DNA from: a virus
Taxonomy: Duplodnaviria > Caudoviricetes
Length of the DNA: 64,000 nucleotides
Virus record (IMG/VR): IMGVR_UViG_3300021399_000133
Coordinates: 24,988 to 88,987 of that record
Strand: one strand, 5' to 3'
The notes below the pieces were generated by a model. That model was not told the DNA's origin. It was given only the letters and a program-made list of their open reading frames with translations, and did not search any database. This document shows, piece after piece, positions 5,605 through 59,500 of the stretch. The position numbers and the translations under genes are program-made. Every line of letters starts with the position of its first letter. Within the stretch, counting starts at the first letter, position 1.

Positions 5605-7947
5605 ATGGCACAATGGATTAGAACTTCTGAGCCCTATATTAAGGTTCAGGAACAAATTCGCCAAGTTGCTCTTAACCCGGTTGCTGGCGAAGATCTTATT
5701 ATCGGTGTTGTTTTGATTTCTGACGCAGGTCCAGCAGCTCCTACTCTTATTTCTAATCAGTCGGAGTTCTTGGCAACTTATACTAGTCAGGACGTTACAC
5801 GCGATTATCTTGCTTCTCTGAATATGCTTTATAGTGGTGATGATTCCACTTTGGCTTCTCGGATGTGGGCAAATGGTTATCGTCTGGCCGGTTCTAATAC
5901 GCTTTTGGTAGTTCGTGCATCAAAGGCAAAAGATACTTTCTTTGCAAAACCGCTTCAGAAGGATGATCAAAATACTTATGTACTCCGTGATGGTGAGCTC
6001 CTGAAGTCCCTGCCAAAAGTAAAACTGGTATTGGATGTAAATGGAATGTCTGCTAGTCACGAAGGTACTGGTTGGGCTATTAATATCAGCGGTGTTGGTA
6101 TTTTTGGTAATCTCACAACAGATGAAGGTGCTCAATATGACTACTATGTTAATAACTTGGTAGACTTGGTAGAGAGCTTGAATGAAAGTTCTAAGTTTTA
6201 TTCTCCCTCTTTTGAGTTCTTCACTGATGCTGCCGCTCAAGAGAAGATTGACGTAAATAGTGACTCTTCGGATGCTGATAAGGCTAAGGTTGTGTCGGTT
6301 GTATTCAATGAGCTCTATCTTGGTTCTTATGTTCTTGACACTAGTGATCAGAGAGTTCCTGACGGTTTGGCTATGATGAACTTCTGCACGGGTGGCTCTT
6401 ATACTGCTGATACTATTATTGATATTAATGGTGCAGCTTGGTCCGGTTTTGAGCCTGCCGAGTTCTATGCTATTAATGCCAATAACTCAGCTACTACTCT
6501 TAGAGTTCGTATTCGTCGTTTCAATCATGATGCAGTTGTTCAGAAGGAATTGGCAGACTCTGAGGTATCTTCACTGACAGAAAGTGGCAAGTCTCCTTAT
6601 ACTGTTTTGACTGATGTTCTTGATACTTTCACACAGAAGGGAACAGTTGAACCAAGCGACTCTATTAAGGCTCGTGACTTCTTTGAGATTGCTGTATGGG
6701 ATCCAAGTGTAAATTCTGAGGTTAGCTTCTTTAACATTGGCAATATTACTGGTCGTGGTGATATGGAAGTTAGTGAGGTTAACAGTCTTATTCAGATGAT
6801 TCAGGTATCTCTCCCTGATGACCTCCATGATCTGGGTCTTAACTACTATGATTATGTTGAGGATGATAAGAAAACAGTTTATGTATGGGAAGAGGCAGAG
6901 CTCCCAGCAGGTGCATCAGCTGAACGTAAGACTACACTCCCAACGGCAAGTGAAGCATGGGTTGGTAAGTATGTAACTATTGATAATGGTGAAACTTACT
7001 TTACTTGTGTTAGTAATGAGGATCAACCCAATGGCGCAGGTCAACTTTATGCAAATCTGACTATTGATCCTACTGAGTCTAGCATTCTTGATATTAGTGA
7101 CTCTGATTTGAAGAAGGCTTTAGATGAGATTGTACTTGATGAGGTTTATACTGTTGAAGGTCTGTCCGATCTTGGTAATACAGAGCTTTCTTTCCAGAAC
7201 TATATGGCAAATGTAGCTATCAACAGCAACTACTTCTATCCAATTTCGACTGCTAATAGTACTAACTATATGACTATTGGTAATCAAGCAACTAAGATTC
7301 CACAGGATTCTTATAAGCTTTACATGTCGGCTCCTTGGGATATCGACTCTGGTACTCTTGGTTGGAAGTATTATGCATCTCCATCAGTTCTGTATTGGGA
7401 GGCTGTTGCTAGAAACCGTAGAAACAATGAAGAGTTTGCATCTATTCTTGGTTCTAGATACGGTGTAGTTCAGTATTCTCGTCCTGTTACTGAGTTTAAT
7501 AAGAAACAGCGTGAACTCCTTCTTAGCAAGCGAGTTAATACTGTGCTTTGGAATGTTCCTACTCAAGCTTGGAATATGAATGATTGCTTTACTAAGACTT
7601 CTCAGAATAACATCATGAACGAAGATGGTAATTCTCGTCTTGGTATTAGAATTGGCAAAGCTATTCCTATTCTCCTCAGACAGTTCATTGGTCGTAAGAT
7701 TAACCAGAAGATGTGTGATGAGATGCTTAGTGTTCTTGAGTACTGGTTCAAGACTACTATTCTTCCAATGGGTATTACTGTAGATGCTTATCAGATCTTC
7801 GTACCATATAAGGAGGAATTGGCTCGTCAGAATAAACAGCAAGTAACGGTTAATGTTAGATTCGCAAGATCGTTGAAGTATGTAAACGTTTATGAGGACT
7901 ACTATGATGTTGGCATGGATGTTTCTACAGACTATCACAATCTTTAA
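5605..7947 (+). CDS. Contractile tail sheath protein (paralog 1)
   Basis: 780 aa. N-terminal PTLISNQSEFLATY; C-terminal KKQRELLLSKRVNTV...SRLGIRI...VTVNVRFARSLKYVNV typical of sheath C-terminal domains; followed by a terminator-like hairpin. Confidence 0.85.
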   Translation: MAQWIRTSEPYIKVQEQIRQVALNPVAGEDLIIGVVLISDAGPAAPTLISNQSEFLATYTSQDVTRDYLASLNMLYSGDDSTLASRMWANGYRLAGSNTLLVVRASKAKDTFFAKPLQKDDQNTYVLRDGELLKSLPKVKLVLDVNGMSASHEGTGWAINISGVGIFGNLTTDEGAQYDYYVNNLVDLVESLNESSKFYSPSFEFFTDAAAQEKIDVNSDSSDADKAKVVSVVFNELYLGSYVLDTSDQRVPDGLAMMNFCTGGSYTADTIIDINGAAWSGFEPAEFYAINANNSATTLRVRIRRFNHDAVVQKELADSEVSSLTESGKSPYTVLTDVLDTFTQKGTVEPSDSIKARDFFEIAVWDPSVNSEVSFFNIGNITGRGDMEVSEVNSLIQMIQVSLPDDLHDLGLNYYDYVEDDKKTVYVWEEAELPAGASAERKTTLPTASEAWVGKYVTIDNGETYFTCVSNEDQPNGAGQLYANLTIDPTESSILDISDSDLKKALDEIVLDEVYTVEGLSDLGNTELSFQNYMANVAINSNYFYPISTANSTNYMTIGNQATKIPQDSYKLYMSAPWDIDSGTLGWKYYASPSVLYWEAVARNRRNNEEFASILGSRYGVVQYSRPVTEFNKKQRELLLSKRVNTVLWNVPTQAWNMNDCFTKTSQNNIMNEDGNSRLGIRIGKAIPILLRQFIGRKINQKMCDEMLSVLEYWFKTTILPMGITVDAYQIFVPYKEELARQNKQQVTVNVRFARSLKYVNVYEDYYDVGMDVSTDYHNL

Positions 7948-28827: not shown

Positions 28828-30753
28828 ATGAATAAGATCAATGTAGATATACCAGAAGGAACTGGTTATCTAAGTAATTTAGTAAATTTTAAAGATTATT
28901 TGCCACAAGAAAAGGCAATTATCAACAAAGCTATCTGTGGTTGTGGATGTACTAATTACTTCCTACAACTGCAAGATACACCAGTCTTACTAATTAGCCC
29001 AAGAAAGGAATTGATTAATAGTAAGATGAAAAGTACTAGATTAAATGGACTATATTACTTTGATAGGACAAACTATAGAAGGGTAACAGTAGCGGAATCA
29101 ATAGAAAAACTGGAGGAATATCTTGGGACTACTACATTACCACCTAAAATTCTAATGACATATGATTCTGCAAAGATAGTAATTGATCATTTAATTCGGA
29201 CAGGGAGGATACAAAACTTTCTAATAGTAGTAGATGAGTTTACTTGTATTTTTTCTGACGTTAGGTTTAAAGGTTTTGTTGAGATTAATTTCTTAAAGTC
29301 TATTTTAGCACTAAATAATATTATTTACTTTATTAGCGCTACTCCAATCAAAGAAGTATTTTTGGATATGTTGGATGAGTTTAAAAATCTTCCATACGTA
29401 ACCCTAAATTGGCCGCAGAGTTCAATTGAGACTGTCTATTTTGATTGGAATACGATGAATAGTACTAGGGCTGCTGTTAAAGAAATAATAAATAACTTTA
29501 AGATAGAAGGATTTTTCCATTCCAAAGTTGTAAATGGAGAAGTAGTCAAATCAATAGAAGCAGTATTCTTTGTTAATTCAGTCATAGACATAGCAGCTAT
29601 AATAAATGATATGGATGGCTACTTAAATCCCTCTAATACCATGATTATTTGTGCTGAGGATACAAAAAATAAAAAGAGACTAAGAGAAGTTGGATTTAAG
29701 ATAGGACAGCCTTATAATGAGATAGATTATAAGACTATGAACAAAACCTTTACTTTCGTTACTAGAGCAAGTTTTGAAGGAACTGATTTCTACTCAGATA
29801 ATTCTTCAACCTATGTCTTTGCTGACTCTAATCGGGAAAATATGTGTCTAGATATTTCTATTGACTTACCACAGATTGTTGGTAGGTGTAGAACAATAGA
29901 AAATCCCTTCAGAAATGACATTACTTATTATTTTAAAACAACAACAGATAGGGGTAATGTTGATGATCTTACCGAGTTAGTAAAAAAGAAAAGACTAGAA
30001 ACTATCGAAAGAATTAAAGATTTTAATGAGCTCAAGGCCAACGGTAAAGAAGAGTTTCATAACTTTTTAATGAAGAGATTTATAAATGCTACAGAGAAAT
30101 ACGAGGATTGTTATGTTGATGGACTAGTTACTTATGATCCTGATGGCCAAATAACTAACATATCCGCTGAGTTTAATAAATTAGCTTATGTCGCTGACCT
30201 AAGATCTATAGAAATAAAAAAGAATCAATATAAGAATCGTTACTCTGTTCTAGCAAGTCTCGATGAAAACGGGTTCTTTAATGAAAATCAGAGGCAAGGA
30301 AGCTTATGTAGTGTTTTAGATAAGTTCAAGTCTTTACGAAAGTTTGAACGAAAAATAAAGATATATAGTTTAATAGCCGAAAAAGATAATAAGATCAGAG
30401 AAATGTTAGAAGGATGTTCTGCTATACCAATAAACTATAAAATCTATAGTAGAAATATGAACTTGCGGGAAATGAAAGCAGTTAGGTTTAGAGAGATTGA
30501 TATAAAGAGAAGAGTAGATTATCTCCAAAGTCAAGAGGCTATTAAAGAAGAGCTGTTAAAGGTTTTGGTACCAGGACAGTTTTATTCCTATGGTGAGATT
30601 AAATATTTATTAATGCAGGTTATTAATAAATTAGGTCTCTCAGGTAAACCAAGTGGAAGTGATATCCTTTTAATGCTTCCTCCTGATAAAATCAAGGAAA
30701 TTTCGAAGCGGAGAGGTAAAAATGTTTATAAAGGAATTATTTTGGCAGAATAA
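28828..30753 (+). CDS. SF2 (DExx) helicase-like protein, candidate origin-binding/initiator protein
   Basis: 641 aa; VVDEF (II), ISATP (III), TRASFEGTDF (V), QIVGRCR (VI); Walker A region reads AICGCGCTN, with no Lys. Confidence 0.75.
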   Translation: MNKINVDIPEGTGYLSNLVNFKDYLPQEKAIINKAICGCGCTNYFLQLQDTPVLLISPRKELINSKMKSTRLNGLYYFDRTNYRRVTVAESIEKLEEYLGTTTLPPKILMTYDSAKIVIDHLIRTGRIQNFLIVVDEFTCIFSDVRFKGFVEINFLKSILALNNIIYFISATPIKEVFLDMLDEFKNLPYVTLNWPQSSIETVYFDWNTMNSTRAAVKEIINNFKIEGFFHSKVVNGEVVKSIEAVFFVNSVIDIAAIINDMDGYLNPSNTMIICAEDTKNKKRLREVGFKIGQPYNEIDYKTMNKTFTFVTRASFEGTDFYSDNSSTYVFADSNRENMCLDISIDLPQIVGRCRTIENPFRNDITYYFKTTTDRGNVDDLTELVKKKRLETIERIKDFNELKANGKEEFHNFLMKRFINATEKYEDCYVDGLVTYDPDGQITNISAEFNKLAYVADLRSIEIKKNQYKNRYSVLASLDENGFFNENQRQGSLCSVLDKFKSLRKFERKIKIYSLIAEKDNKIREMLEGCSAIPINYKIYSRNMNLREMKAVRFREIDIKRRVDYLQSQEAIKEELLKVLVPGQFYSYGEIKYLLMQVINKLGLSGKPSGSDILLMLPPDKIKEISKRRGKNVYKGIILAE

Positions 30754-31240
30754 GTTAAATGTTTAATTTTTTTGGTTGTGTGGGGTTACACCCCAATTCG
30801 CTTCGCTCCCCTCTTCCAGATGTTTTTTAGATATATATGTTTAAAAAAGGATGACAAAAACATTATTCCTGCTTATAGTAACCCCTTTTTTGGGAAAACT
30901 ACATAAACATTTGGGTTAGTGCCTCATGACTAAAAAAATTAAACATTTAACTTATTAAGTGTTGTTAAAAAAGTGTCAAAACATTATTTTTCCCTTATAT
31001 TATTAATACAAGTGTTTTATGAAAACAACACTATAAATGTAGTCAAAAAATTGACAAAAACATTATTCCTGCTTATAGTAGACCTATTTTTAGAAAAAAT
31101 TTTACTACACCTAAATGTTAAACTATATAATAATTGTGGATTAGTTCCACATGATCTAATAAGTTCTACATTTAAATTTTGAGATAGTTCTATGTCCAGG
31201 CCAGGGTTGGATGTGGCCTTCTGGCTGGCCTGGATATTGC
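30749..31240. other. Putative replication origin: AT-rich region with inverted repeats, iteron-like direct repeats and hairpins
   Basis: 25-bp perfect IR (30749-30773 / 30932-30956); 29-bp perfect DR (30852-30880 / 31052-31080) plus a degenerate copy near 30975; GC hairpin 31195-31234; flanked by helicase-like and primase genes; skew flips here. Confidence 0.65.
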
Positions 31241-31279
31241 ATTCTATATTTATTAACAACTATAAAAGCTTATTAAACA

Positions 31280-32359
31280 ATGAAAGAGATTACTATTTTT
31301 AAAAACTTGTACACTTCAGATTCTGTTAATGTTGCTTTGACTGAAGCTTGTGAAATGATGAAAGTTTCAGATAATCCAGCAATTGATAGGCTAAGAGAAT
31401 GTACAGATCAGATGGAGAGATTAGAGTTAAAAAAGCGTTTACCTGTTATTATGTGGCAGGGAAAATTTAATGGATCTCGGAAAAATGAGAATCTCACTGA
31501 GTTTTCAGGTTTAATGTGTCTTGACTTTGATAACCTTGATGGAAAAGATTTAGAATCTCTTAAAGACAAGATTTTCGACAAAGGTCATGTACTCTGTGTT
31601 TTTCTCAGTCCTAGTGGAAAGGGATTAAAGGTTATTGAGTATTGTGGGCCTAAGTTAAATTCCAATAATTGGAGACTCTATTATCTATTTTTCAAGAATT
31701 ATTATGAAGATAATTTTGGTCTTCATCTAGATCCTTGTTCAGGAGTTTTAAGTCAAGGGTGTTTCTTGTCAAAAGATCTTAATATCCTATATCGAACCCT
31801 AAATAATGTAGAAGAGGCTTATGTTGATGAGTTAGATTATTATCGATTCATGAGTAGCGCGATCTTTGAAAAAGAATTGGTAGCTTTGCCAGATTTAGTT
31901 TACTCAGATAATGATTTAAAAGCTAAAGAGATCATAGACAAGTTAGACAATGACTGGTCGAAGAATGACTCTTTTTACATGCCTGGTAATAGGACTAGAT
32001 CAATTTTTACCCAAGCTGCCAAACTCAGAGCCGAGGGCATTAGTGAAACCTTAGCGTTAAATTATCTCAAGTCTAAATATTTGTCGAGTGATTATCCTGA
32101 GTCTAAGATCATCGAAGAAGTTCACTCAGGTTATACTAATTCTTCCAAACTATCTATACCAAAGAAAATGTTGGAAGATGTAAATGACATATATGATACA
32201 ATGTTTTTAGCTATGGACCTTTATCCTCATGGTGCTGTTTTTGGATCTATTCGTCAGTTTATAGAATTAGGTTTGTCGGATGAATCGATTAAACACATCA
32301 TGGAGACAGTAGTACTTCCAGATGATATTTGGAAGGAAGTAGGTCCTATAACGTTGTAG
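31280..32359 (+). CDS. BT4734/VirE-N-like primase-polymerase with PriCT-type C-terminal domain
   Basis: 359 aa; LKKRLPVIMWQGKF...FSGLMCLDFDNL...FLSPSGKGLKV and PGNRTRSIFTQAAKLRAEGI motifs. Confidence 0.8.
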   Translation: MKEITIFKNLYTSDSVNVALTEACEMMKVSDNPAIDRLRECTDQMERLELKKRLPVIMWQGKFNGSRKNENLTEFSGLMCLDFDNLDGKDLESLKDKIFDKGHVLCVFLSPSGKGLKVIEYCGPKLNSNNWRLYYLFFKNYYEDNFGLHLDPCSGVLSQGCFLSKDLNILYRTLNNVEEAYVDELDYYRFMSSAIFEKELVALPDLVYSDNDLKAKEIIDKLDNDWSKNDSFYMPGNRTRSIFTQAAKLRAEGISETLALNYLKSKYLSSDYPESKIIEEVHSGYTNSSKLSIPKKMLEDVNDIYDTMFLAMDLYPHGAVFGSIRQFIELGLSDESIKHIMETVVLPDDIWKEVGPITL

Positions 32360-32386
32360 AACAGATCAAGTTGGTCTGACTATTTG

Positions 32387-32420
32387 AAAGGAAAGTCTTT
32401 ATTAAGAGGCTCTCCTTTTT
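32387..32420 (+). terminator. Terminator-like hairpin after the primase gene
   Basis: AGGAAAGTCTTT / AGAGGCTCTCCT stem followed by a T-run. Confidence 0.55.
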
Positions 32421-32441
32421 ACTTTTGAGAGGAGAGAAATA

Positions 32442-32780
32442 ATGAAGTACTTATTATCGACGGGGAAGGCGACTGATAGGTTAGAGTATTATGTGATGGA
32501 TTTATTCCGCTTATACTTATCTATTCAGCCCAGGGATATACCGGGTTCCCCTCAAATTGGTTTTAACTTTACCTTATCTGGGACATTTAAATCGGATCTA
32601 GTTTCAGCCGTTGAGTCGAAGGTAAAGGAATTAGTTTCAGTCATATCGGGTCGTTTTAATTCAAATTCGATAGTGATTGAGATAGAGAGTTTAGAGATAG
32701 TTGATGAGACCTTAGCGAAGTTAGTAGTGTCAGTAAATAAGCTAACGTCGGATGAGATCTTGATTAACTTATATGAATGA
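32442..32780 (+). CDS. Baseplate wedge/sheath initiator (gp25-like)
   Basis: 112 aa; RDIPGSPQIGFNF motif; first gene of the wedge cluster. Confidence 0.7.
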   Translation: MKYLLSTGKATDRLEYYVMDLFRLYLSIQPRDIPGSPQIGFNFTLSGTFKSDLVSAVESKVKELVSVISGRFNSNSIVIEIESLEIVDETLAKLVVSVNKLTSDEILINLYE

Positions 32781-40919: not shown

Positions 40920-43900
40920 ATGTTAATCAAGTACAATAGTTTATTAAGGGACTTTTCGAACAAAATTGGGAATACATTAAGGCTTGAAGGATATGGCTTC
41001 TCGGAATATACAGACATCGAAAATATAATGGTAACAGGTAAAGAGGTAGAATTTGAATCTATCTATGATGTTCCTACTAGATCTTTACGGTTTAATATTC
41101 CGGCTGAAGTCAAAACTGAGATAAAAGCCATCTATTTTACGGCCAGACTTGATATGAGAACTAAAACATTGTCTCCAGCCTTCGTACTTTACAACGAAAC
41201 AGGTAATATTGAGCTTTGCGCTGGAAATAATTTGTTTACCATTGAGTTCCCAGATAAATTAGATGGCTTTGATTTTAATATACAGAACATAGAATCGTCC
41301 CTAGTAAATATAGATAATGTAGTTAGAGAGGGTTTTGGTGGTGATCCTGGCCGAAATATGTGGCTTTCTGATACTACTTCTCCCAGTACAATCATTACTC
41401 GAGACTCTTTCTACCGTTATCTAATTACTAATACATCTGCTGGAGAAAATAGGGTTAATACCTATGGAGAAAATACAAATTCTTATGTCTATAGTGTAGT
41501 CAAAAGTTTTTCTCTTAGAGCTCCAGGCGTTAAACAATTATCAGACGGTAGGTTTGTAATTTATGGTCTCCCAACAGCACAAGGAGAATGGTACTGGGAA
41601 AGTAAATCTGGAAGTTATGATGGTAATGATTTTGCACTATACTTTAAAAATCCATACCTTAAGATAATTTCATTAACTGGACGAGTAGTTTATGATGAAT
41701 ATCTTATCTCAAATGGAGTTCCTATTGAGAAGATTAGTGAAAACAAAGAAACTACTCTAGAAGAATTATCGGAAGTGAAGATTAGTTTAGAGGATATTCC
41801 TGGTCAACCTTCTTTTTACGAGGATGTAGATTGGCCATGTAAAATTAATAATACTAACAAAACATTTTCTTATTACTCAACAGATACCCTATGTTGTGGT
41901 ATTCTCAAAGCAGGTATAAATGTTCGTGGTATTGTTGAGGTTTCTGAGGGAGTATACCAGTTTGAAAAATCTACTCATGTTTTACAGTCTGATAATGAAA
42001 TTGAATTATACAAAAAACAACTCTTTGATGCGTGGATTGCTCCGACAGGTTATAAAGGCAATAATGATGTCCCTGGTTTAATCTTTCCACCATACGAACC
42101 AAATAACCAACTTCATTTTCAGCTTTGTGTAAGATTCTATGGTTCAAAGGAAGATTTAGTAGGTACCGTTAATTATGATATTATTGATGGTAGTTATATT
42201 TCAGTTAAGTCTGGTATATGGTTTGAATATTTTGAAGATTCGAATCTAGAAGCTTGGGATGAATCAATTTCGTTAAAGTATGGCAGCTCAGATATAAAAC
42301 TTGGAGCAAATATTCCTTGTCCTATAACTGAATGGATACAGGATGAAGAAGATCCAGAGGTTTTCTATACTCCTCTCCCTGATTTTACTTTCTACTATGA
42401 TGAAGAGAAAACAAAAACTATAAATACTTCATCGCTTCCTGCACCACTAGCTGAAGGGTCGGACGGTTTATGGGATTTTTCTCCTGCTCACTTTAAATTT
42501 TATGTCAATTATTTCTTTGCACCAGAGGCATTGAAAAGAGTGGCGGATGTAGAAGAAGTAAATATAGTGTCGTCTGAGGAATGTAGGCCAGAGCTTTATC
42601 TCTCAGAAAAAGCAAATCATTTTGAATCTCGTATAACAACAATAACAGATAGTGATAATTCAACTAGTTTATTGTTTGAGGAATATGACGTCGGATCAAA
42701 GATTTATAATGCTACATTTTATCTTAAACCAGGTGAGGATGAGTGGAATGATTGGCTAAATAATAATAATGAGAATAGAGAGGCTACATATCATGACTAT
42801 AACTTTTTGGGAGAAATCACGATAGAGTCTGATCTTAACTTTACAGAAACTGGTAGTGCTGATTATGTAGGTTGTAATTTGAGCATGAGGAATGAGAGTC
42901 AGGGAAGATGGGGGTCTTGGTGGCCAGTTTATCCAAAAACCAAGACAGCACATAAGATAGTTTTCCCTGCGCCAAGTCAAAGTGATTTAATTTATATAGA
43001 TTGGAATGATAGTGCTGTAATGCTGTCTTATCAACTCTCTTTTAATTTCTCTGGGTTCTCAAATGAAAAACTAGACTCTTTAGAGAATATTGGTATTGTT
43101 AAGGTAAATCGACTTTGTAACGTTCAGAATCTTCAGGAGGAAAGACCAACCGAAAGTGAATTTGAAAGAGAAAGTTTCGTTAATACCTCAAAGACTTACT
43201 CAATACCAATGGTGAAAGACCCATATTGGACTGTTTCTTATAGTACAGAATATTATCATCTTTCATCTACTTCACTCCCATCAGGTCCTGTCTTTGTATT
43301 GCCAGGTGAAGTTCCAGAGGGAGTATCTGATAGAGTTAGAATTCTTAATATCCGACATTACCTGAGATCTGATGAACTTGAAGACTATCAAGATCCTTCA
43401 GTTTCTGATTATTTCTCTTTGAGTTATGATAGAATTTATGAGAGTTTTCTAGGTAATGATTATGAATTGCCTTTTGTATTGGAGACATTATCTAAAAAGA
43501 CGGATGAAAGTGGAAGAGTATATGTAGAAACGTATCTTTCATATTGGTTAGATAAGGCAAATACGGAGCTGAATTGGTACCCTTATGATTATTCCACTAA
43601 AACGTCTACTTTGTCACCAGTTACAATTAAACAGGCAGACACATCAGATAAAGCTTTTCAGACATTTACTTTCTATGTTGTTCAAAATCATCGTGAGGAT
43701 ATAGTTCTTTCTTCTGTATTAATGACTGCTACTTCTACACCGGCTCCTCTTAGTAGTGCCATATTTAATAAGGATCTCACAAGGGAATTTAACCTTCGCT
43801 TTCAATCTCAGTATGAAATTGACGGTAGTTCTCATGTTGTTGATTCTTCTCCTTCGGCATATACAGATTGGAGACTAGATATGACAACTGTTCCTAGTTT

Positions 43901-46900
43901 TTCTATAGTAGATTCTGATACGCAGGAGGAAGTTTCTAGTGGTAGTTTTAGCGATAAGATATACACCTTAGGCTGTTCTAGTCCATCAGATGTGCCTCTA
44001 ACCAACTATATAGGAAGTTTTACTGTTGATAGAGTTCAGAATGATGAATATTTAAATAGTAAAGAGGATTGGGAAAAAGTAGTCTCAACATTCAACACTA
44101 AGCCTACTCAAGTTTCTATTTATAGGACGACTGCAGATAGTACAATTGAGGTAATAAACGCATCTTCTTTATCTAGAACATTTGAGTTTTCAGATTCTCT
44201 TCCATTATTTTTAGCTTATCAAAAAGAAGATGAAGACGGAGATACCGAGATTCCATTTTGTAAGATTATTGTTCATTATCAACCAGTAACAGAAGAATTT
44301 GATCCATCTCAGAATTTCTCTGTATATCTTGATGATGATATTGGTCTTATTGAATATCCTGATGGTTGTCCTGTTGATATAGAAGATGTACCAGGGTGTT
44401 TACAGGTTTATCCTAAAGGAGATCAGATGTGGCAGAAGAAAACAGACTCGGAACATAAAGTCTATTTTGAAGCTGATCTGTTTATAAAGACTAACGTAGC
44501 TAATAATCTTGAATTCTTTAAACCAAGGGATGTATTAATCTCAGGTAGTTATCATAATCTAGTTGTTATTTGTAAGGATGAATCTGGTACTGAGTTTGAG
44601 AATTCTTACGAGTTTCATGCTGTTCAAACATTTAATGAGCTAACATTGCGTGCGGATTTCTCAGAGAATGGTACTGATTATTATTCCAGTGATTCGAAAC
44701 ATATAGTTTTTACGCCGGATAATACTGTTTATATTAAATTCTTTGCTGGTGAATACCTTGAAGACTATTGTTACCTTGAGGAAGATAAAACCTGTTCTGT
44801 TAAATTTAAAGAGGATTGGTTTGTAGTAAATGGGACAGTAGTTTCAGGAACAGAAGTAAAAGACCTTGTATTTAATCAATCTAAGGTAGTTCAGAATCCG
44901 ATAAGATATGAATTTAAACTAATAGATGAATTAATATCGGGCATAGAACTTCCGTCTGAGAATAATTATTTTGAAGTTTTCCGTACTCCAGATATTGTTC
45001 GGATGTATGAGTCACAGCCACTTTGGATTAGAACAGCATATCAGGACGCTCAGGATGGTGATAGAATAAAGCCACTTGCAATATTTTATGATATTCAAGA
45101 AAGCCCAATAATAGAACATACTGAGTCAATCACAGTATCTGAGGTAGGTTTATACTCATTCTATCTTAAGTCTGGTCTTCCGGTAAATATTTCGATTGAT
45201 GTTAACTGGAGAGGTGATTTTGGATTATGTTATTTTCCTGAGTCATCAATTAGTTCTGATATTGATGTTGAAAAGACACGGACCAGCTTAGAAAATATAA
45301 AAACGAAGGACTACAGTAATAGATTCTATATTGCTATTGCGGATCTTCCATTCTATGCTAATTCAGAAGACATAGAAATTGGTCATATTACAATTACTAA
45401 TACAGCTGGGACAGTAGAGACGATTCCAATTTATTTATCCGCCATAAAGAATCCATATGTTCACCTTGAAAATAAACAGCAAGTAGTTAAGATTATTGAG
45501 TTTGGTAATGACTATCAGAGTAAAGAGGCGTTGATATATCGATCTAATTACGGTCAAGTATTTGAAGCCGTCGGTGATTCTTCCTCTTCAACTTCTGATT
45601 TAAGCTATGTAACAACGCATCAATATCTTGTTCTTAATGGTGAAAATAAGTGGGAGCAGAAGACATTGATTCGACTGACTCTTGAAACTGATTATTACCT
45701 AGAGCATAAGGGTCTCCCATTACTTAATCTTGGATATGTTGAGAATTCAGGTATAGATTATTCATCTGGTACTCAGGTTAATACTAGTAGGTTATACCTT
45801 TTTGACAAACCGGATTATACTGACTTATTTACAATTTCATTTGATGGTGTTCGTAAGACAAATAACAGTGAATTCTTAATACGTCAGATAGGAAGTCATA
45901 AAGTTACAATAGAGACAGATCAGCCAGGAATTAAATCTTCTGCTAGAAATGGTTATGCTATTTTCTACTCGATAACACCTACCTTTACTACCTATGATAA
46001 TTACTCGGGTCATACATTCTATTTTACCTATAATGGTTCTCAGTGTTCAAACATTACTCCTGATATGTGGGTGTTGGATACAAGAACTGGATTATATAAA
46101 GTAGAATTGACTCTAGTTGTATCAGGTGGCCTAGTAAATAATTCAGCTGGTCCTTTGGTAGGTAGACTTGATTTAAAATTCGGGCCTGCTCCAAACACCT
46201 TAGCTGGAATAGATGAGATTAAGGGAACGTGGTATGAGATATTCACTCAGCTTCATGGTTATCCTTCTGCAAGTGAGTTTTCTAATCTTACCGGAATGGA
46301 TAGGTACCTGAAAGAGCTTCTGGATGGTTTTAGCCTTTATACTTATTTCCTTACGGTTAGTCCTACTTCTCATACTACGCTTACTTATACTCATTATATT
46401 AATCCTAACAGTATTCCGGGTAGTAGTCTTTTCTCCAATATACATGTTACAGCGGAGAGTTCCTGGGTTAAAAGTGATAATCCAACTATTACGAGCAGTG
46501 TTATTGATCCTGGCGGTGCCTCTAGTTCTGCTCTCTTTAATAATGCTGATTTTGCTGAAGAACCAAATCTCTACCAAACAAGAATAATTTTTGGAAATAG
46601 ATTATTGACAGAGGGTTTAGTCTCTAGTATTCAACTTAATCAGTCTTATGCATTTGGTTCTAACAAACGTCTATTCTCTGGTAAGTACTTATTGAATGAT
46701 AATGGGACTGTTCTGATAAATAATGAGCTAATTAGTGTTTTGCGTCGTGATGGTTACCCTGGTATATTGCTCTATAGACTCTACCTGAATAAAAAAGAAG
46801 AATGGTCAACAGCAATTAATGGTTTTGTCCAAGGCTCTTCTGTTAATACAATGCGACTTAATTGTCATACGAGTCGAGATTTAAAGTTGAGTATTGGTGT

Positions 46901-48857
46901 CTATGAGTTTAAGGAAGACGGTACTGTTATTGAAGAGGGTGGTGGAATATTTTACAGAGATTATTTAGATATTCCTATTGATAGTGGTATTGAAGCTGAG
47001 ATTATAGAAGAAAATTCTGGTTCTATCTTCTCAAATCCAAGACCAAACGTAATATTACATTTCCCTCCCGCTAATACTTCACAGTCAACTCTAATTTCCA
47101 TCAATGTTCCAGAGTCTTCACCCAAATCTTACTTGTCTTCTATCACTGCTGACCTTACAATTTTACAAGATCCAAGTGAAATAGTAGTAAATTATGATGA
47201 TGAGCTGTCTTGTCCTTACTTTGATTGTTCAGGTATAAATAAAGATAGTGGTATTTTCATTCGAACTACTTCTCAAGATTTTACATTGTCTGGAGATTTG
47301 GTTAAGTCAAGTGAGATAGAATCAATAGAAGAAGATAGAGATTCAGGAACGCTTCTATGCAAGGTTAATTTACAGCTCATTCCTAATTGTTCGGCTTCGC
47401 CATGGGACTCTACTACCTCACTGATTAATCTAGTTTCTATCAAGGATCAGAACGGTTCGATTGTAGGTCAGTTCCGTGTATATCAAGATTCTTTCTCTTT
47501 GTGTGTTAGGTCTCACTCTGATGATACTATTTATGATTGGGAGTGGAATTATTTTACTAAGTCCTATCAGTTAACTCCAAATGGTTATATCACTCCAGGA
47601 ACTAGTGAAGAAGAAGCTTATACATTGCCTTCGATTACTAATGTCTCTGACTTTGATAAAACCTTCTCTATTACTGAGGCTGAATGGAATTATTATAATC
47701 TTGAAAGTAAGGTATGGGGAGTTCAGAGTTTTAGTGAAGAAGACATTAGAACATCAGGGGAGTTTAATTTCTTGAGTGAGGAGTTGTGGGATGATTCCGG
47801 TAATAAGATGACTGCCTCCGAGTACTTTAACAGTATCTCTTTGCTTTCGTCTGGTATATCATTTAGGTTATCATATAAAGTGCTTAATTCAAAGATAAGA
47901 GATTGGTTTACCTTTTTCTATAATTTTGGTCTACATTTCTCGATTGATGATATAGATTTAACTACTCCTACCTATTCGATTAAGTACAGAAAAAATTCAT
48001 ATATAGATCAATTAATTTACATTTCTGGTGATATCAATATAGAAACTAGGAATGGTAGTGTTTATTCTAGTATTTGGGGTTTATCGCAGGGCTTACTTCC
48101 TAGTCCTTCCGATGCTCCTAATGCTTTAATCTGCTCTTCCGATGCTCCAGATATTGACACCTCTACTATTAGTTATTTCTTCGATGATAATAGATTGAAG
48201 TATAATTTAAGTTACTCAGACCTTGGTAATATTAAGTTCTTACCTATTGCTAGTAGAACTCCCGGTGTTACCATTGATGCTTCGACCAACAGTGCTATTA
48301 TCTATTGTGGGGGTGCTTCAACTACTCCATCAATAAACATCAGGCATCTTACGTGGTATCAAGACGTTTATGTTAGTACTACGCCAGATGATCCTTCCTC
48401 CACAACACGTATAGTTCGACCTGGTTGGAAATCTACATTAGTTTATAGACGAGGAAATGGAATAAGGGCATACTTCGACGCTGTCACTAAGATTTTCCCT
48501 GAGTATAATAATGTAGAAGGTTTTGAGAATATAGAAGGTGTTAATATTTCGGCAGGTGAGACGATAGAATTCACAACAGTCTGGGGTGATTTAACTCCGG
48601 GCCAACCGATTCCTAATAGTTTTGAAGGTAATACAGTTAAGCCGGTGTTGGTATATGGAGATCCTGATACTATCGGAATTAGTTTAACCAGCTATTCTGA
48701 ACAGTCTTATCTTGATTGTAGAGTACCAGGAAATTCTAATCCGACTTGGTCAATAACTGGCAATGGTGCTCCTGGTGATGTTTGGGTGATTAATCTCTCA
48801 ACAATACGCCACTCCATTGAATTAGTTGGTATCACACTAATAATAACTCAACAGTAA
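40920..48857 (+). CDS. Very large beta-rich structural protein (possible baseplate/fibre protein with Ig-like domains)
   Basis: 2645-aa uninterrupted ORF, S/T/D/E/Y-rich; no catalytic motif recognised. Confidence 0.6.
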   Translation: MLIKYNSLLRDFSNKIGNTLRLEGYGFSEYTDIENIMVTGKEVEFESIYDVPTRSLRFNIPAEVKTEIKAIYFTARLDMRTKTLSPAFVLYNETGNIELCAGNNLFTIEFPDKLDGFDFNIQNIESSLVNIDNVVREGFGGDPGRNMWLSDTTSPSTIITRDSFYRYLITNTSAGENRVNTYGENTNSYVYSVVKSFSLRAPGVKQLSDGRFVIYGLPTAQGEWYWESKSGSYDGNDFALYFKNPYLKIISLTGRVVYDEYLISNGVPIEKISENKETTLEELSEVKISLEDIPGQPSFYEDVDWPCKINNTNKTFSYYSTDTLCCGILKAGINVRGIVEVSEGVYQFEKSTHVLQSDNEIELYKKQLFDAWIAPTGYKGNNDVPGLIFPPYEPNNQLHFQLCVRFYGSKEDLVGTVNYDIIDGSYISVKSGIWFEYFEDSNLEAWDESISLKYGSSDIKLGANIPCPITEWIQDEEDPEVFYTPLPDFTFYYDEEKTKTINTSSLPAPLAEGSDGLWDFSPAHFKFYVNYFFAPEALKRVADVEEVNIVSSEECRPELYLSEKANHFESRITTITDSDNSTSLLFEEYDVGSKIYNATFYLKPGEDEWNDWLNNNNENREATYHDYNFLGEITIESDLNFTETGSADYVGCNLSMRNESQGRWGSWWPVYPKTKTAHKIVFPAPSQSDLIYIDWNDSAVMLSYQLSFNFSGFSNEKLDSLENIGIVKVNRLCNVQNLQEERPTESEFERESFVNTSKTYSIPMVKDPYWTVSYSTEYYHLSSTSLPSGPVFVLPGEVPEGVSDRVRILNIRHYLRSDELEDYQDPSVSDYFSLSYDRIYESFLGNDYELPFVLETLSKKTDESGRVYVETYLSYWLDKANTELNWYPYDYSTKTSTLSPVTIKQADTSDKAFQTFTFYVVQNHREDIVLSSVLMTATSTPAPLSSAIFNKDLTREFNLRFQSQYEIDGSSHVVDSSPSAYTDWRLDMTTVPSFSIVDSDTQEEVSSGSFSDKIYTLGCSSPSDVPLTNYIGSFTVDRVQNDEYLNSKEDWEKVVSTFNTKPTQVSIYRTTADSTIEVINASSLSRTFEFSDSLPLFLAYQKEDEDGDTEIPFCKIIVHYQPVTEEFDPSQNFSVYLDDDIGLIEYPDGCPVDIEDVPGCLQVYPKGDQMWQKKTDSEHKVYFEADLFIKTNVANNLEFFKPRDVLISGSYHNLVVICKDESGTEFENSYEFHAVQTFNELTLRADFSENGTDYYSSDSKHIVFTPDNTVYIKFFAGEYLEDYCYLEEDKTCSVKFKEDWFVVNGTVVSGTEVKDLVFNQSKVVQNPIRYEFKLIDELISGIELPSENNYFEVFRTPDIVRMYESQPLWIRTAYQDAQDGDRIKPLAIFYDIQESPIIEHTESITVSEVGLYSFYLKSGLPVNISIDVNWRGDFGLCYFPESSISSDIDVEKTRTSLENIKTKDYSNRFYIAIADLPFYANSEDIEIGHITITNTAGTVETIPIYLSAIKNPYVHLENKQQVVKIIEFGNDYQSKEALIYRSNYGQVFEAVGDSSSSTSDLSYVTTHQYLVLNGENKWEQKTLIRLTLETDYYLEHKGLPLLNLGYVENSGIDYSSGTQVNTSRLYLFDKPDYTDLFTISFDGVRKTNNSEFLIRQIGSHKVTIETDQPGIKSSARNGYAIFYSITPTFTTYDNYSGHTFYFTYNGSQCSNITPDMWVLDTRTGLYKVELTLVVSGGLVNNSAGPLVGRLDLKFGPAPNTLAGIDEIKGTWYEIFTQLHGYPSASEFSNLTGMDRYLKELLDGFSLYTYFLTVSPTSHTTLTYTHYINPNSIPGSSLFSNIHVTAESSWVKSDNPTITSSVIDPGGASSSALFNNADFAEEPNLYQTRIIFGNRLLTEGLVSSIQLNQSYAFGSNKRLFSGKYLLNDNGTVLINNELISVLRRDGYPGILLYRLYLNKKEEWSTAINGFVQGSSVNTMRLNCHTSRDLKLSIGVYEFKEDGTVIEEGGGIFYRDYLDIPIDSGIEAEIIEENSGSIFSNPRPNVILHFPPANTSQSTLISINVPESSPKSYLSSITADLTILQDPSEIVVNYDDELSCPYFDCSGINKDSGIFIRTTSQDFTLSGDLVKSSEIESIEEDRDSGTLLCKVNLQLIPNCSASPWDSTTSLINLVSIKDQNGSIVGQFRVYQDSFSLCVRSHSDDTIYDWEWNYFTKSYQLTPNGYITPGTSEEEAYTLPSITNVSDFDKTFSITEAEWNYYNLESKVWGVQSFSEEDIRTSGEFNFLSEELWDDSGNKMTASEYFNSISLLSSGISFRLSYKVLNSKIRDWFTFFYNFGLHFSIDDIDLTTPTYSIKYRKNSYIDQLIYISGDINIETRNGSVYSSIWGLSQGLLPSPSDAPNALICSSDAPDIDTSTISYFFDDNRLKYNLSYSDLGNIKFLPIASRTPGVTIDASTNSAIIYCGGASTTPSINIRHLTWYQDVYVSTTPDDPSSTTRIVRPGWKSTLVYRRGNGIRAYFDAVTKIFPEYNNVEGFENIEGVNISAGETIEFTTVWGDLTPGQPIPNSFEGNTVKPVLVYGDPDTIGISLTSYSEQSYLDCRVPGNSNPTWSITGNGAPGDVWVINLSTIRHSIELVGITLIITQQ

Positions 48858-56305: not shown

Positions 56306-56503
56306 ATGGCAATCTTTAAAAATAATTCGGGGTTTGATTACTTCTATTATGGTACTCAACCTCTACAAACCATTTATCAAGGAACTAAGATTATTTGGGA
56401 AGGTATCAGATCATGCTATGGTGCTGGTTACTGGGTCCCAACAAAGCCCTGGTTGGAAAACGAAGGCTGGAAATACTATAATAAAAACGTAAATAATGGC
56501 TAA
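56306..56503 (+). CDS. Small tail-fibre cassette protein
   Basis: 65 aa; IYQGTKIIWEGIRSCYGAGYW...KPWLENEGWK. Confidence 0.7.
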   Translation: MAIFKNNSGFDYFYYGTQPLQTIYQGTKIIWEGIRSCYGAGYWVPTKPWLENEGWKYYNKNVNNG

Positions 56504-59500
56504 AAGTATTATAACTGATCCAATTCCATCGATGGATACGCCTTGGGAGAACTATGCGGGCCAATGTGTAGAAGATTTTATTAAGGAAAATTTGACTGAT
56601 CTCGAAACAAATAAGTATGGATGTATAATGTTGTCAGAACACCCAGACGCAGATTCATACTATCATATTTGGTGCTTTGCTAATAGACAAGCATTCGACG
56701 ATTGGCATGATCCTGAACATGGTTATAGCACAGATACTCTCGATAATACCTCAGAACAATATCGAGACCTCCTTTTGCACTCTCTCGTACTCCAGATTAA
56801 GGCAGATCCAGGTAACATCTATACTGCTGAAATCTTTACTTACTTTAACCCAGGTAGTGCAATCGTTTGTAAAGAAAAACAGTATCTCATCCCTTACTAT
56901 TTCAGAGCTCTTTATCAGGATGCTTTGTCAGGCGAAAGAGATGACTATAGTACAAATGGTACTATCACTATTCAACGCTCTGTCGATCATGGTGCATCTT
57001 GGGTAACGGTTGGAACTCAAAGTGCTATCAGCCGTAAAGGTGCTCCAAAACGAAATGAAGATGGCTCATATTCATCCGAGTCGTTCTTCGCTGAGGATAT
57101 GGTTGATATTGGTAAGTATTTCACTGAGACTAATCCACAATACTTCAGATTCCGTGTTTCTTATGACGTTTTGAGCGATTCTGGTGCACTCCTTTCTTCG
57201 GCTGTTTCACCATGGATCCAATTTACTAACGTTACTTACACTGAACTCTTGTGTAACTTCTCGGATCAATCTAGTACATCCACCATCATCGACCTTAGTA
57301 AGACACCAAATCTTCCTGTTGACTTGACTTTGAAGTGCGATGTAACAAAGCATGTATTTGTAGAAGTAACTGGATCAAATGGCACATATTCAACTGATGC
57401 TGTCCTAGACGCTGTCACCAATACTGCTCACTTTAATATTACACCTGATATTACAGCAGCTAATGAGGCAGGACTCTTTACTCATGGTGTTAAAACAATT
57501 AGAGCTTGGATTACAGCTGATGGCGGAACTAATGGGACTCTTTCTTCTGAAGTTGCAATGACTCAGAGAATGGTGGTCAATATTAACGACCAAGAAGCAG
57601 ATCTGTATAAGCCCTGTGTGATGATGCAAGGCTTGACAAATACAGTGGAAAACTATATTAGCATTCCTCAGTTCTGTTCTTACTCAGTCTGGATTCCATC
57701 AAATATCGATCCTACTCTGCCTGCTTCTTCTTCAATTGACCTTAGATTTGTAGTTTCATCTTCACCCGATTCTCAGAGTCTTGGTAATTCTTATATGCTT
57801 CAAACTGCATCAGACCGTATTAATGGACAAATCTATGCATTCGGCTGTACTATTGAAGCAGAATCGTCAGAAGAACAGCTCCAAGGTTATCTTCATGTCT
57901 TAGATACTACCGATGAAAGAAATATAGTTGATATCCTCTATAACTCAATCGGCGAAGAATATATAGAAATTGACATTAACAACTCGTATAAATTTGCGCC
58001 AGTCGGAGATGCTGATTTCTACCTTAATCCTCGTGTTCGTGATAACTCTGAGGCTAATCCAACTAAGATCTATAATGAAGCACTAGCAAGCCGTGATGAA
58101 ATTCCTTCTCACTGGTCAGGCTTTGGTGCTATTAATGATGCCTGGATTACTTCCGATGTTGATGGTCAGAAAGTACTTAGAGTTGTATCTGGTCAAACTA
58201 TCTCTATCGAATATGACTGGCTGGCTACTTTCGCTAACCTCTCTGCCGATACGATGAAATCTCTGACCTTCGAAATTGATTATCGCGTTAGAAATGTAGT
58301 TGATGAAAATATACCAATCATTAGAGCTGGTTCTTTCATTGGCTCACAGTTCGTTGGCATTACCCTGAACTCTATGAATGGTACTGTCTGCTCTACGAAC
58401 TATGCTAACGTTCCTATGCAAGACTTTAGATTCCAAGAAGATGAGAGAACACATCTTGTCGTAAATCTTAGCACTCGTTATGATGCAGGTGCGGGCGGTG
58501 CTAATTATCTTCCTCTCTGTCAAGTCTTTATCAATGGCGTAATCAATAGAGAGTTCCTTTTCGGTACAGCAGGCGGATCTATTAATAACACTGAATGGTA
58601 TACCGCAGGAAATCCATCAACTATTGTAATTGGTAATGGTGAACTGAAGGCAGACATCGATATTTATTCTATCCGTGTCTATTCTTCTACTAACTCCTCT
58701 CACGTATTTACAGAAGCTGATGTCCTCCAAAACTATATCACTTCTCTGCCTACTACTAATGAAAAACTTACCTGCCGTCAAGAAAATGATATCTTGGCAG
58801 TAAACGGTAAGGTTAGTGCTGAAAAGCTTGAACAACTTGGCAAAAACGTTATCATCTGGCATGGAACACAGCCTACTCACTCTGACCCTAACTCTAAGAA
58901 AGGATGGTGGGAAATCTTTGTTTATAATGCAGATGGAACACTTGATAAGGCTCACTCTGGTACTATCGCTAAGGAAACAGGACAGGCAGGAAATGGTCTT
59001 ACTGCCACCAGACAAGGTACTACGGCCAATACATATTTCTATTCTAACATCCAAACTAAACTTAAGGATCTGTCTAAAGAAAAGGATGGAAAACCGGTGA
59101 ATCCTAAAATCTTCGTTAGACTTGAAAATATTGCTCCAGACTTCGCCTATGACCCAGAAGAGGTTGTAACTGAACAGGGACATGATGGTATCTGGACTTG
59201 GGATGGTTGGATAGACGGCAACAATATGTATCATGGACCCTTCTACCAACTCTCTAATAATACCCCACTCGGCCAGAAGATGGTGCTGAAGATTAACTAT
59301 GCTTCTTCTCAGCAATCACACCTTATGGGATCTTGTAACCTTTATAACGACCTGCATAAGAGATTGGTTACTGCTAACGCAATGATCCAATTCAACTCTA
59401 ATGCTCGTGTATGTAAACAACAACTTCCTTTCCACTATTTTACTGATGACTCTAATGGCATAGTTTTCCAAGGTATGGGTACATTTGGTCCTGGTAAAAT

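Follow-up and report, generated by a model that had tools for sequence, protein, structure and literature searches.

A helicase–primase-like gene pair and a promoter-like spacer inserted into the baseplate operon of a predicted jumbo phage

Introduction

The primary replication origin of phage T7 contains two tandem promoters, and T4-like phages carry the freestanding homing-endonuclease genes seg and mob. At the T4 origins oriF and oriG, a middle-mode promoter is combined with an AT-rich unwinding element, and replication is primed from an R-loop (PMC3016281). The α protein of P4 and other primase-helicases of mobile elements possess a C-terminal winged-helix origin-binding domain (Kazlauskas et al. 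2018, PMC5862659). In this study, we analyzed a 64,000-nucleotide stretch of viral DNA (hereafter the window; bases 24988–88987 of the 88,987-bp IMG/VR record IMGVR_UViG_3300021399_000133). We focused on a 3.7-kb block at positions 28751–32441 that interrupts a baseplate operon and consists of a superfamily 2 (SF2) helicase-like gene (ORF1), a 526-bp spacer and a gene for a predicted BT4734-type primase (ORF2).

A first-pass annotation of the window had viewed this block as a self-contained module of initiator, iterons and primase, which would act either as the phage origin or as a captured replicon. On balance, we lean towards a different explanation, in which a helicase-primase pair was captured laterally at a variable baseplate junction and the two genes are now separated by a promoter-like spacer specific to this phage lineage. 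Origin activity of any kind at this site seems possible rather than probable. The block deserves attention as a candidate site of replication initiation or transcription restart in a phage group that has neither a cultured member nor a known origin.

Results

A 3.7-kb block inserted between conserved baseplate genes

The gene order around the block is common to 67 related loci: the tape measure gene is followed by genes for proteins of 374, 101, 373, 223 and 180 amino acids (aa), the position of the block, and genes for proteins of 112, 716 and 181 aa onward. Synteny shows that nothing separates the 180-aa and 112-aa homologues in L019, L020 and some 25 further distinct loci, where the two genes either abut or overlap. 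The stop/start overlap at the empty site of L019 reads ACATGA, and the block lies exactly between the stop and the start that overlap in such relatives. The empty site in relatives identifies the block as an insertion, and the first-pass claim that it splits hub and wedge genes that are normally contiguous was borne out. The block and its immediate neighbors are as follows.

28208–28750, + strand: last hub-side baseplate gene preceding the insert, 180 aa; in empty-site relatives, its stop and the start of the 112-aa homologue overlap
28751–28827: left junction, 77 bp, 14% GC; the most AT-rich intergenic stretch of the contig, at which the third-position skew changes sign
28828–30753, + strand: ORF1, 641 aa, SF2 helicase-like, intact; a core of two RecA-like domains and a helical middle part, with the C-terminus (residues 568–641 or so) probably forming a winged helix
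30754–31279: spacer, 526 bp, 29% GC; exceeds every other intergenic region in the structural part of the contig
31280–32359, + strand: ORF2, 359 aa, intact; predicted BT4734-like archaeo-eukaryotic primase (PrimPol) domain and PriCT-like helical domain
32360–32441: right junction, with a hairpin near 32410–32437 whose loop carries TACTTTTG (32420)
32442–32780, + strand: first baseplate gene after the insert, 112 aa, 49–55% identical to homologues in related phages

The insertion site is intergenic and its occupancy is patchy among close relatives, as would be expected for a mobile cassette, and profile searches with the proteins of the block found neither a nuclease nor an integrase. A single ORF1-like gene is present on the 89-kb contig. 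An intron between the halves of one gene was rejected, as ORF1 and ORF2 both have natural ends matching full-length relatives and no intron model matches. A miniature transposon was also rejected: the 23-bp inverted repeat found in the spacer is single-copy in 89 kb, and the block has neither a target-site duplication nor terminal repeats. The unit had further been credited with its own upstream promoter and downstream terminator. This was not supported, as the scan found no + strand terminator in 28–33 kb and the hairpin at 32410–32437 lacks a T-run. The TACTTTTG sequence in its loop is the sole Bacteroides-type −7 box adjoining the module and lies 22 nt before the start of the 112-aa gene. 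Similar GGAGGG...CCCTCC hairpins are found in several other intergenic regions of the contig.

ORF1 and ORF2 code for a helicase-like protein and a predicted primase

The assignment of ORF1 as an SF2 helicase-like gene agreed with its predicted fold. An AlphaFold2 model with a mean predicted local distance difference test score of 85 was aligned by VIA-align to Prp2, eIF4A, DbpA, BLM and WRN with Z of 16–19 over 310–355 residues. The Pfam DEAD profile (PF00270) scored 22.2 bits, below its gathering cut-off of 26, and ORF1 gave no match in PHROGs, NCBIfam or PADLOC. Motifs II, III and VI are intact, with D136-E137, A171-T172 and Q349..G352-R353..R355 invariant in 26 sequences, and the DE, SAT and QxxGRxR motifs are retained in ORF1. 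The Walker lysine is missing from the P-loop, which reads NKxxCGCGCT. Across the family, the motif takes the form (N/D/S)KxxxGCG[C/M/F/A/Y]T, and the lysine position is taken by C, M, F, A or Y in 32 of 32 sequences; a lysine four residues before the first glycine of the P-loop is kept in all 32 members inspected and may represent the catalytic lysine in a new position. At the C-terminal end of the ORF1 model, about 75 residues align to winged-helix domains, including the phage P4 origin-binding domain and Orc1/Cdc6, with Z of 5.0–5.8, a value that indicates a common fold and no more than that. ORF1 has over 690 relatives (cluster representatives), which are about 633 aa long and belong to no Pfam family; they define a large and unnamed SF2-like helicase family with an apparently displaced Walker lysine.

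The annotation of ORF2 as a BT4734/VirE-N primase was confirmed by PF08800, which matched at 80 bits against a cut-off of 22.4 and over positions 2–134 of the 134-position profile; the PADLOC PrimPol model also matched (E = 4e-25). D82 and D84 (DxD, motif I), S110-P111-S112 and G115-L116-K117 (SPSGxGLK block) are invariant across 13 sequences including ORF2, which retains all residues invariant in its 12 relatives, among them DxD and the DGNRT block of the PriCT-like domain. From the full-domain match and these motifs, ORF2 is predicted to be a BT4734-type primase-polymerase. A C-terminal extension of about 60 aa is confined to this phage, and its similarity to the tail of ORF1 is not significant.

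The pair resembles a module of Bacteroidales prophages and integrated elements

Of 24 related loci, 23 have a PF08800 gene downstream of the ORF1 homologue; the two genes are spaced by −4 to +13 bp or, in two of these loci, fused. The fused protein P0088 (959 aa) aligns to residues 1–629 of ORF1 and then to residues 3–285 of ORF2, and the Atlas contains a further fused helicase-primase cluster with 79 members. Given this adjacency or fusion, the pair is a conserved helicase-primase module of Bacteroidales prophages and integrated elements, and since fused relatives exist, ORF1 and ORF2 most likely work together as a helicase-primase. The first-pass idea was right in this part: a replication-type helicase and primase pair was captured. 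The placement of a spacer between them is not a conserved feature, because the genes are at most 13 bp apart, overlapping or fused in these 23 loci.

In Bacteroidales contigs, the regions that contain ORF1 homologues are prophage-like or integrated, and related pairs adjoin tyrosine integrases, a Sak-type annealing protein, a PD-(D/E)XK nuclease and methyltransferases. A quick tree placed ORF1 among the prophage-type genes and apart from six jumbo-phage genes that occupy the same baseplate junction (approximate likelihood ratio test, SH-aLRT, 100). Lateral capture of the pair from Bacteroidales temperate or integrated elements is well supported by these comparisons. Two strain variants with 99.8% identity differ in ORF1 by four synonymous and no non-synonymous changes, and in ORF2 by five synonymous and two non-synonymous changes, the latter both in the unique tail. 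Because the changes total nine synonymous against two non-synonymous, both genes are judged to be under purifying selection in the phage.

The spacer contains duplicated promoter-like elements

The size and composition of the spacer correspond to the AT-rich repeat region of about 530 bp that had been reported from the first reading. No spacer of this kind is present in any of the 23 related helicase-primase modules, and we therefore regard it as a probable later addition, specific to this phage lineage and outside the conserved module. It contains the following elements.

30749–30771, + strand: left arm of an inverted repeat, perfect over 23 bp, with an imperfect extension to 30783; overlaps the ORF1 stop codon
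30832–31178, + strand: diverged tandem duplication of about 200 bp, with units starting at 30832 and 31032; flanks 74–79% identical; 24-nt insertion in unit 2
30852–30880, + strand: 29-mer copy 1; from 30851, ATGACA-17-TATAGT, 10 of 12 matches to the sigma-70 consensus (the consensus of the host may differ)
30934–30956, − strand: right arm of the inverted repeat, perfect over 23 bp; the two arms enclose the first 29-mer
30973–31001, + strand: degenerate copy of the 29-mer; GTGTCA-17-TATATT, 9 of 12 matches to the sigma-70 consensus
31052–31080, + strand: 29-mer copy 2; from 31051, TTGACA-17-TATAGT, 11 of 12 matches; the best promoter-like site in 28–33 kb
31192–31237, + strand: GC-rich hairpin with 13-nt arms that are 92% complementary; one strain single-nucleotide polymorphism in the loop

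As had been noticed at first reading, there are exactly two copies of the 29-mer TGACAAAAACATTATTCCTGCTTATAGTA, at 30852 and 31052, with a degenerate copy at 30973; two matches were obtained in 0 of 100 shuffles. On the + strand, no other site within 5 kb resembles a sigma-70 promoter as closely as the two exact copies do. Since they are also the only perfectly kept part of a duplication whose flanks are 74–79% identical, the 29-mers suggest constraint or gene conversion. An iteron array would comprise at least three phased short direct repeats. In the spacer, the two exact 29-mers are separated by 200 bp and stem from a tandem duplication, and the one further copy is degenerate. For this reason the repeats, previously labeled iterons, are better described as candidate tandem −35/−10 promoter-like elements.

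The exact 29-mer was absent from the viral contigs searched, and a relaxed pattern gave a single match in metagenome contigs, which lies inside a signal-peptide coding region and was taken as chance. A DnaA box near 31135, matching at 8 of 9 positions by eye with about 0.1 expected by chance, was given no weight. Rfam searches of the window and six related loci gave nothing at the gathering score and chance-level matches at E up to 10.

The third-codon-position skew steps at the block

The whole-sequence GC skew is positive on both sides of the block and has no inflection there. The cumulative AT skew peaks at 30736. At third codon positions on the + strand, the norm of the contig is an excess of G over C and of T over A, and this is reversed from about 18.5 to 28.75 kb. 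The GC skew at third codon positions (GC3 skew) runs through −0.09, −0.28, −0.38 and −0.65 toward the block and then through +0.15, +0.23, +0.46 and +0.41. In a sliding comparison, the largest steps of the contig in GC3 skew (+0.62) and in the corresponding AT3 skew (−0.34) both fall at 29.2–29.6 kb. The GC3 step at the module is +0.62 to +0.86, whereas the gene boundaries of a related genome have a standard deviation of 0.11 and none reaches 0.4. A skew inflection, the absence of which had been proposed as a refutation of the origin, is therefore present at the module, at third codon positions. Its direction is that expected of a bidirectional origin. The sign changes at 28.75–28.83 kb, that is, at the left junction and not in the spacer, and a strong restart of transcription also explains much of the signal; a saw-tooth resetting at a strong promoter would likewise give a jump, but it accounts less well for the negative values. 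As a separate observation, over window positions 1–56000 and the contig upstream of the window, the GC3 skew has a saw-tooth shape along genes that are all on the + strand, falling from about +0.35 to −0.65 over about 50 kb, jumping at the module and reaching about −0.1 by 55 kb.

Among related loci, a like step was observed in L018, L035 and L050, which carry a helicase gene of the other clade at the same junction. It was missing in L057, L079 and L085, at the four testable dispersed helicase copies of the related genome G002, whose whole-genome skew follows gene orientation, and in the approximately 25 distinct empty-site loci, most of which step the opposite way.

Related jumbo phages share the hotspot and carry dispersed copies of the helicase gene

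Helicase-like genes with 29–32% identity to ORF1 are present at the same junction, without a primase gene, in L018, L035, L050, L057, L079 and L085, and these are the six that form a clade of their own. Genes resembling GIY-YIG homing endonucleases lie between the 223-aa and 180-aa homologues in L035 (4952–5983) and L063 (7837–9153), one gene upstream of the insertion site of the window. Because the same site is empty, holds the other helicase clade or adjoins GIY-YIG genes, the junction is a hotspot for mobile genes. We also observed an ORF of similar size in L066 (7814–9145), at the same place as the GIY-YIG gene of L063.

Helicase-like matches number 2, 6–8 and 7–10 in three relatives, of which two are complete (353 and 401 kb) and the third is 83% complete (305 kb), and no PF08800 gene was found in any of the three. 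The dispersed copies are located in G002 (L087, L090, L093–L098), G003 (L088, L091, L099–L102) and G001 (L089, L092, L103, L104). Each is preceded by a non-coding leader of about 0.2–0.6 kb, mostly 0.4–0.6 kb (1.6 kb in one), and similar stretches are shared among the leaders within each genome. Some of the genes downstream of dispersed copies encode a T5orf172/MUG113 (GIY-YIG-type) domain. The partner of the helicase family is either a primase or a GIY-YIG nuclease. This dispersed multi-copy pattern is the behavior of mobile, selfish cassettes in large phages. The presence of multiple family members in related jumbo phages therefore argues against ORF1 being the initiator of a single origin, the role first assigned to it.

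Several features of these relatives were noted in addition. The leaders in G001–G003 contain long pyrimidine/purine hairpins and conserved boxes, e.g., AAAACCTGAATAATGAAA and AACTGGAATCTGTATTAA, and the tails of several T5orf172/MUG113 partner proteins resemble the helicase tail. The leaders at the same site as the block (L018, 6847–7409; L035, 6494–7170; L050, 5581–6135) start with a 40-nt conserved block (AAAATGACGAAAAAATGTCA...CCTTATA), followed by hairpins with changes on both sides of the stem that may be structured RNA, with no Rfam match. A TGACRAA motif shared by jumbo-type leaders (10 against 3 expected) was kept as a lead only, as the copies are related and one genome has none; it was not enriched upstream of prophage-type genes. 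L057 has few long ORFs under translation table 11 across its baseplate region and contains in-frame TAG codons, a pattern compatible with a recoded stop codon.

The source element is a probable jumbo-phage fragment with a Bacteroidales host

CheckV estimated the completeness of the record at 24%. An identical copy of the 716-aa baseplate protein is present on a 330-kb contig, and relatives of this protein are found on contigs of 300–400 kb, several with terminal repeats; the source element is therefore considered to be part of a jumbo-phage genome of about 330 kb. A Shine-Dalgarno-like core precedes just 9 of 84 ORFs, and all 18 matches to genomes holding ORF1 relatives were Bacteroidales, which makes a Bacteroidales bacterium the most likely host. 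Blastn against GenBank phages gave no nucleotide match to the stretch, and searches of viral contigs with ORF1 and with the 716-aa gene as single-protein queries found no loci. A tRNA scan of the window found none. Upstream of the window, two intergenic regions of the contig (G000:C1:4135–4276 and 6161–6322) are tRNA-gene-like and contain TTCGAGTCC T-arms. Elsewhere in the window are a gene for a 2,645-aa protein (40920–48857) and an open reading frame of more than 2,500 codons (56496–63998) that runs off the window end.

Discussion

We propose that a replication gene pair of the Bacteroidales temperate or integrated type landed in a baseplate junction prone to mobile genes, and that the spacer was built later, by tandem duplication in this lineage. 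The spacer would most likely restart transcription for the primase and the downstream baseplate genes, and it may double as a zone of promoter-dependent initiation like those of T4 oriF and oriG. Several observations weigh against this proposal. Bacteroides promoters use TAnnTTTG (PMC7366714); this box was not found in the spacer, and the promoter type of the probable host differs from TTGACA/TATAAT. A promoter used throughout the phage genome was rejected, as neither the rest of the contig nor the 20-kb related loci contain the 29-mer motif. The 17 nt between the hexamers are kept as perfectly as the hexamers, which fits a protein-binding site better than a bare promoter. A GC3 skew as low as −0.65 upstream of the module is hard to obtain from transcription alone, and ORF1 lies on a long branch in the quick tree.

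A classical iteron origin, in which ORF1 would bind the 29-bp repeats through its winged-helix tail, melt the AT-rich DNA and load the primase, either for the phage or for an autonomous replicon, appears unlikely. Such an origin would account for the sign change of third-position GC and AT skew at the module, which has the direction of a bidirectional origin and strengthens toward the module, as well as for the retention of the full 29-mer, including the stretch between the promoter-like hexamers. AAACATT/AATGTTT occurs six times in the spacer against 0.23 expected, the ORF1 C-terminus has its weak winged-helix matches to the P4 origin-binding domain and Orc1/Cdc6, and the SF2 matches of ORF1 found by Foldseek include the origin-binding protein of herpes simplex virus 1 (HSV-1). 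However, the repeats are unphased and few and owe their spacing to duplication, the spacer is missing from every related module, the sign change sits at the left junction, and the whole-sequence GC skew has no inflection at the block. Moreover, the helicase family is present in two to eight copies in related complete genomes, and the testable G002 copies lack a GC3 step.

The block could instead be a selfish passenger, i.e., a mobile helicase cassette of a family that spreads between and inside jumbo-phage genomes, often accompanied by a GIY-YIG-type nuclease, and that has no role in replication, with the spacer as its own leader or debris and the skew as a result of mosaicism. This is consistent with the patchy occupancy of the site, with the numerous matches in related genomes and their leaders, which are alike within each genome, with the T5orf172/MUG113 domains of some downstream partners and with the GIY-YIG genes one gene upstream in L035 and L063. 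The complete relatives lack a PF08800 primase, and the primase would therefore not be a core need of the phage group. Set against this are the block itself, which has no nuclease, integrase, target-site duplication or terminal repeats, its single copy on the 89-kb contig, the purifying selection acting on both genes in the strain variants, and a skew step far outside the boundary spread of the related genome. We consider the passenger explanation improbable.

More speculatively, the helicase-like gene and a non-coding partner may form a mobile origin cassette that seeds new replication starts in jumbo-phage genomes, and the unit in the window would have been rebuilt from a prophage pair. This would explain why a genome has 2–8 copies and why four loci that bear a cassette show origin-like third-position skew steps. 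We regard the idea as a long shot; if it were true, it would have implications for the way in which very large phage genomes acquire and position replication starts.

Finally, it is very improbable that the spacer encodes small hydrophobic peptides or small RNAs, such as a tandem type I toxin-antitoxin-like pair in which the 29-mer is the start of a frame (ATG ACA AAA ... = MTKTLFLLIV): the presence of frames of 22 codons (from 30851) and 69 codons (30973–31182), the three repeat copies that each follow an A-rich run and start with ATG, GTG or TTG, the in-frame 24-nt indel between units, and the 33-bp long-range stem that encloses the first frame, together with the fold z-score of −5.8 for the + strand RNA of the spacer, fit this idea, but the hydrophobic stretch is about 11 residues long and in copy 2 is broken by D, E and K, the frame correspondence between units is lost through a 1-nt indel, every synonymous position is identical, which points to constraint on DNA or RNA, and neither homologues nor an Rfam match were found.

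Under the capture proposal, the locus links replication modules of Bacteroidales temperate elements to gut jumbo phages through gene capture at a defined hotspot. Its closest counterparts are the Bacteroidales pairs themselves (e.g., L006–L011, L106–L122 and P0088), which occur in Prevotellaceae, Muribaculaceae, Alistipes and Bacteroidaceae and are uncharacterized. They are 38–45% identical to ORF1 and 26–32% identical to ORF2 and share with them the gene order and all family-invariant residues. The Bacteroidales genes are directly adjacent, overlapping or fused and are found beside integrases in early or recombination regions, whereas the phage pair is split by 526 bp and resides within a jumbo-phage baseplate operon.

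The comparison with T4 oriF and oriG rests on promoter-like elements located in AT-rich DNA beside replication genes of a large lytic phage. Several origins are present in T4, whose SF2 helicase UvsW acts on R-loops. In contrast to the T4 origins, the promoter elements of the spacer described here are putative, and their consensus does not match the RNA polymerase of the presumed host. With P4 α, the pair shares the combination of an archaeo-eukaryotic-type primase, a helicase and a putative winged-helix domain encoded by a mobile element; however, the helicase is SF2-like rather than SF3 or DnaB-like, precedes the primase and has a P-loop without the Walker lysine. Like the seg and mob genes, the block is inserted between conserved genes with a patchy distribution, and GIY-YIG genes are found at or beside the same junction in relatives, but it carries no nuclease, and its cargo is a helicase-primase pair.

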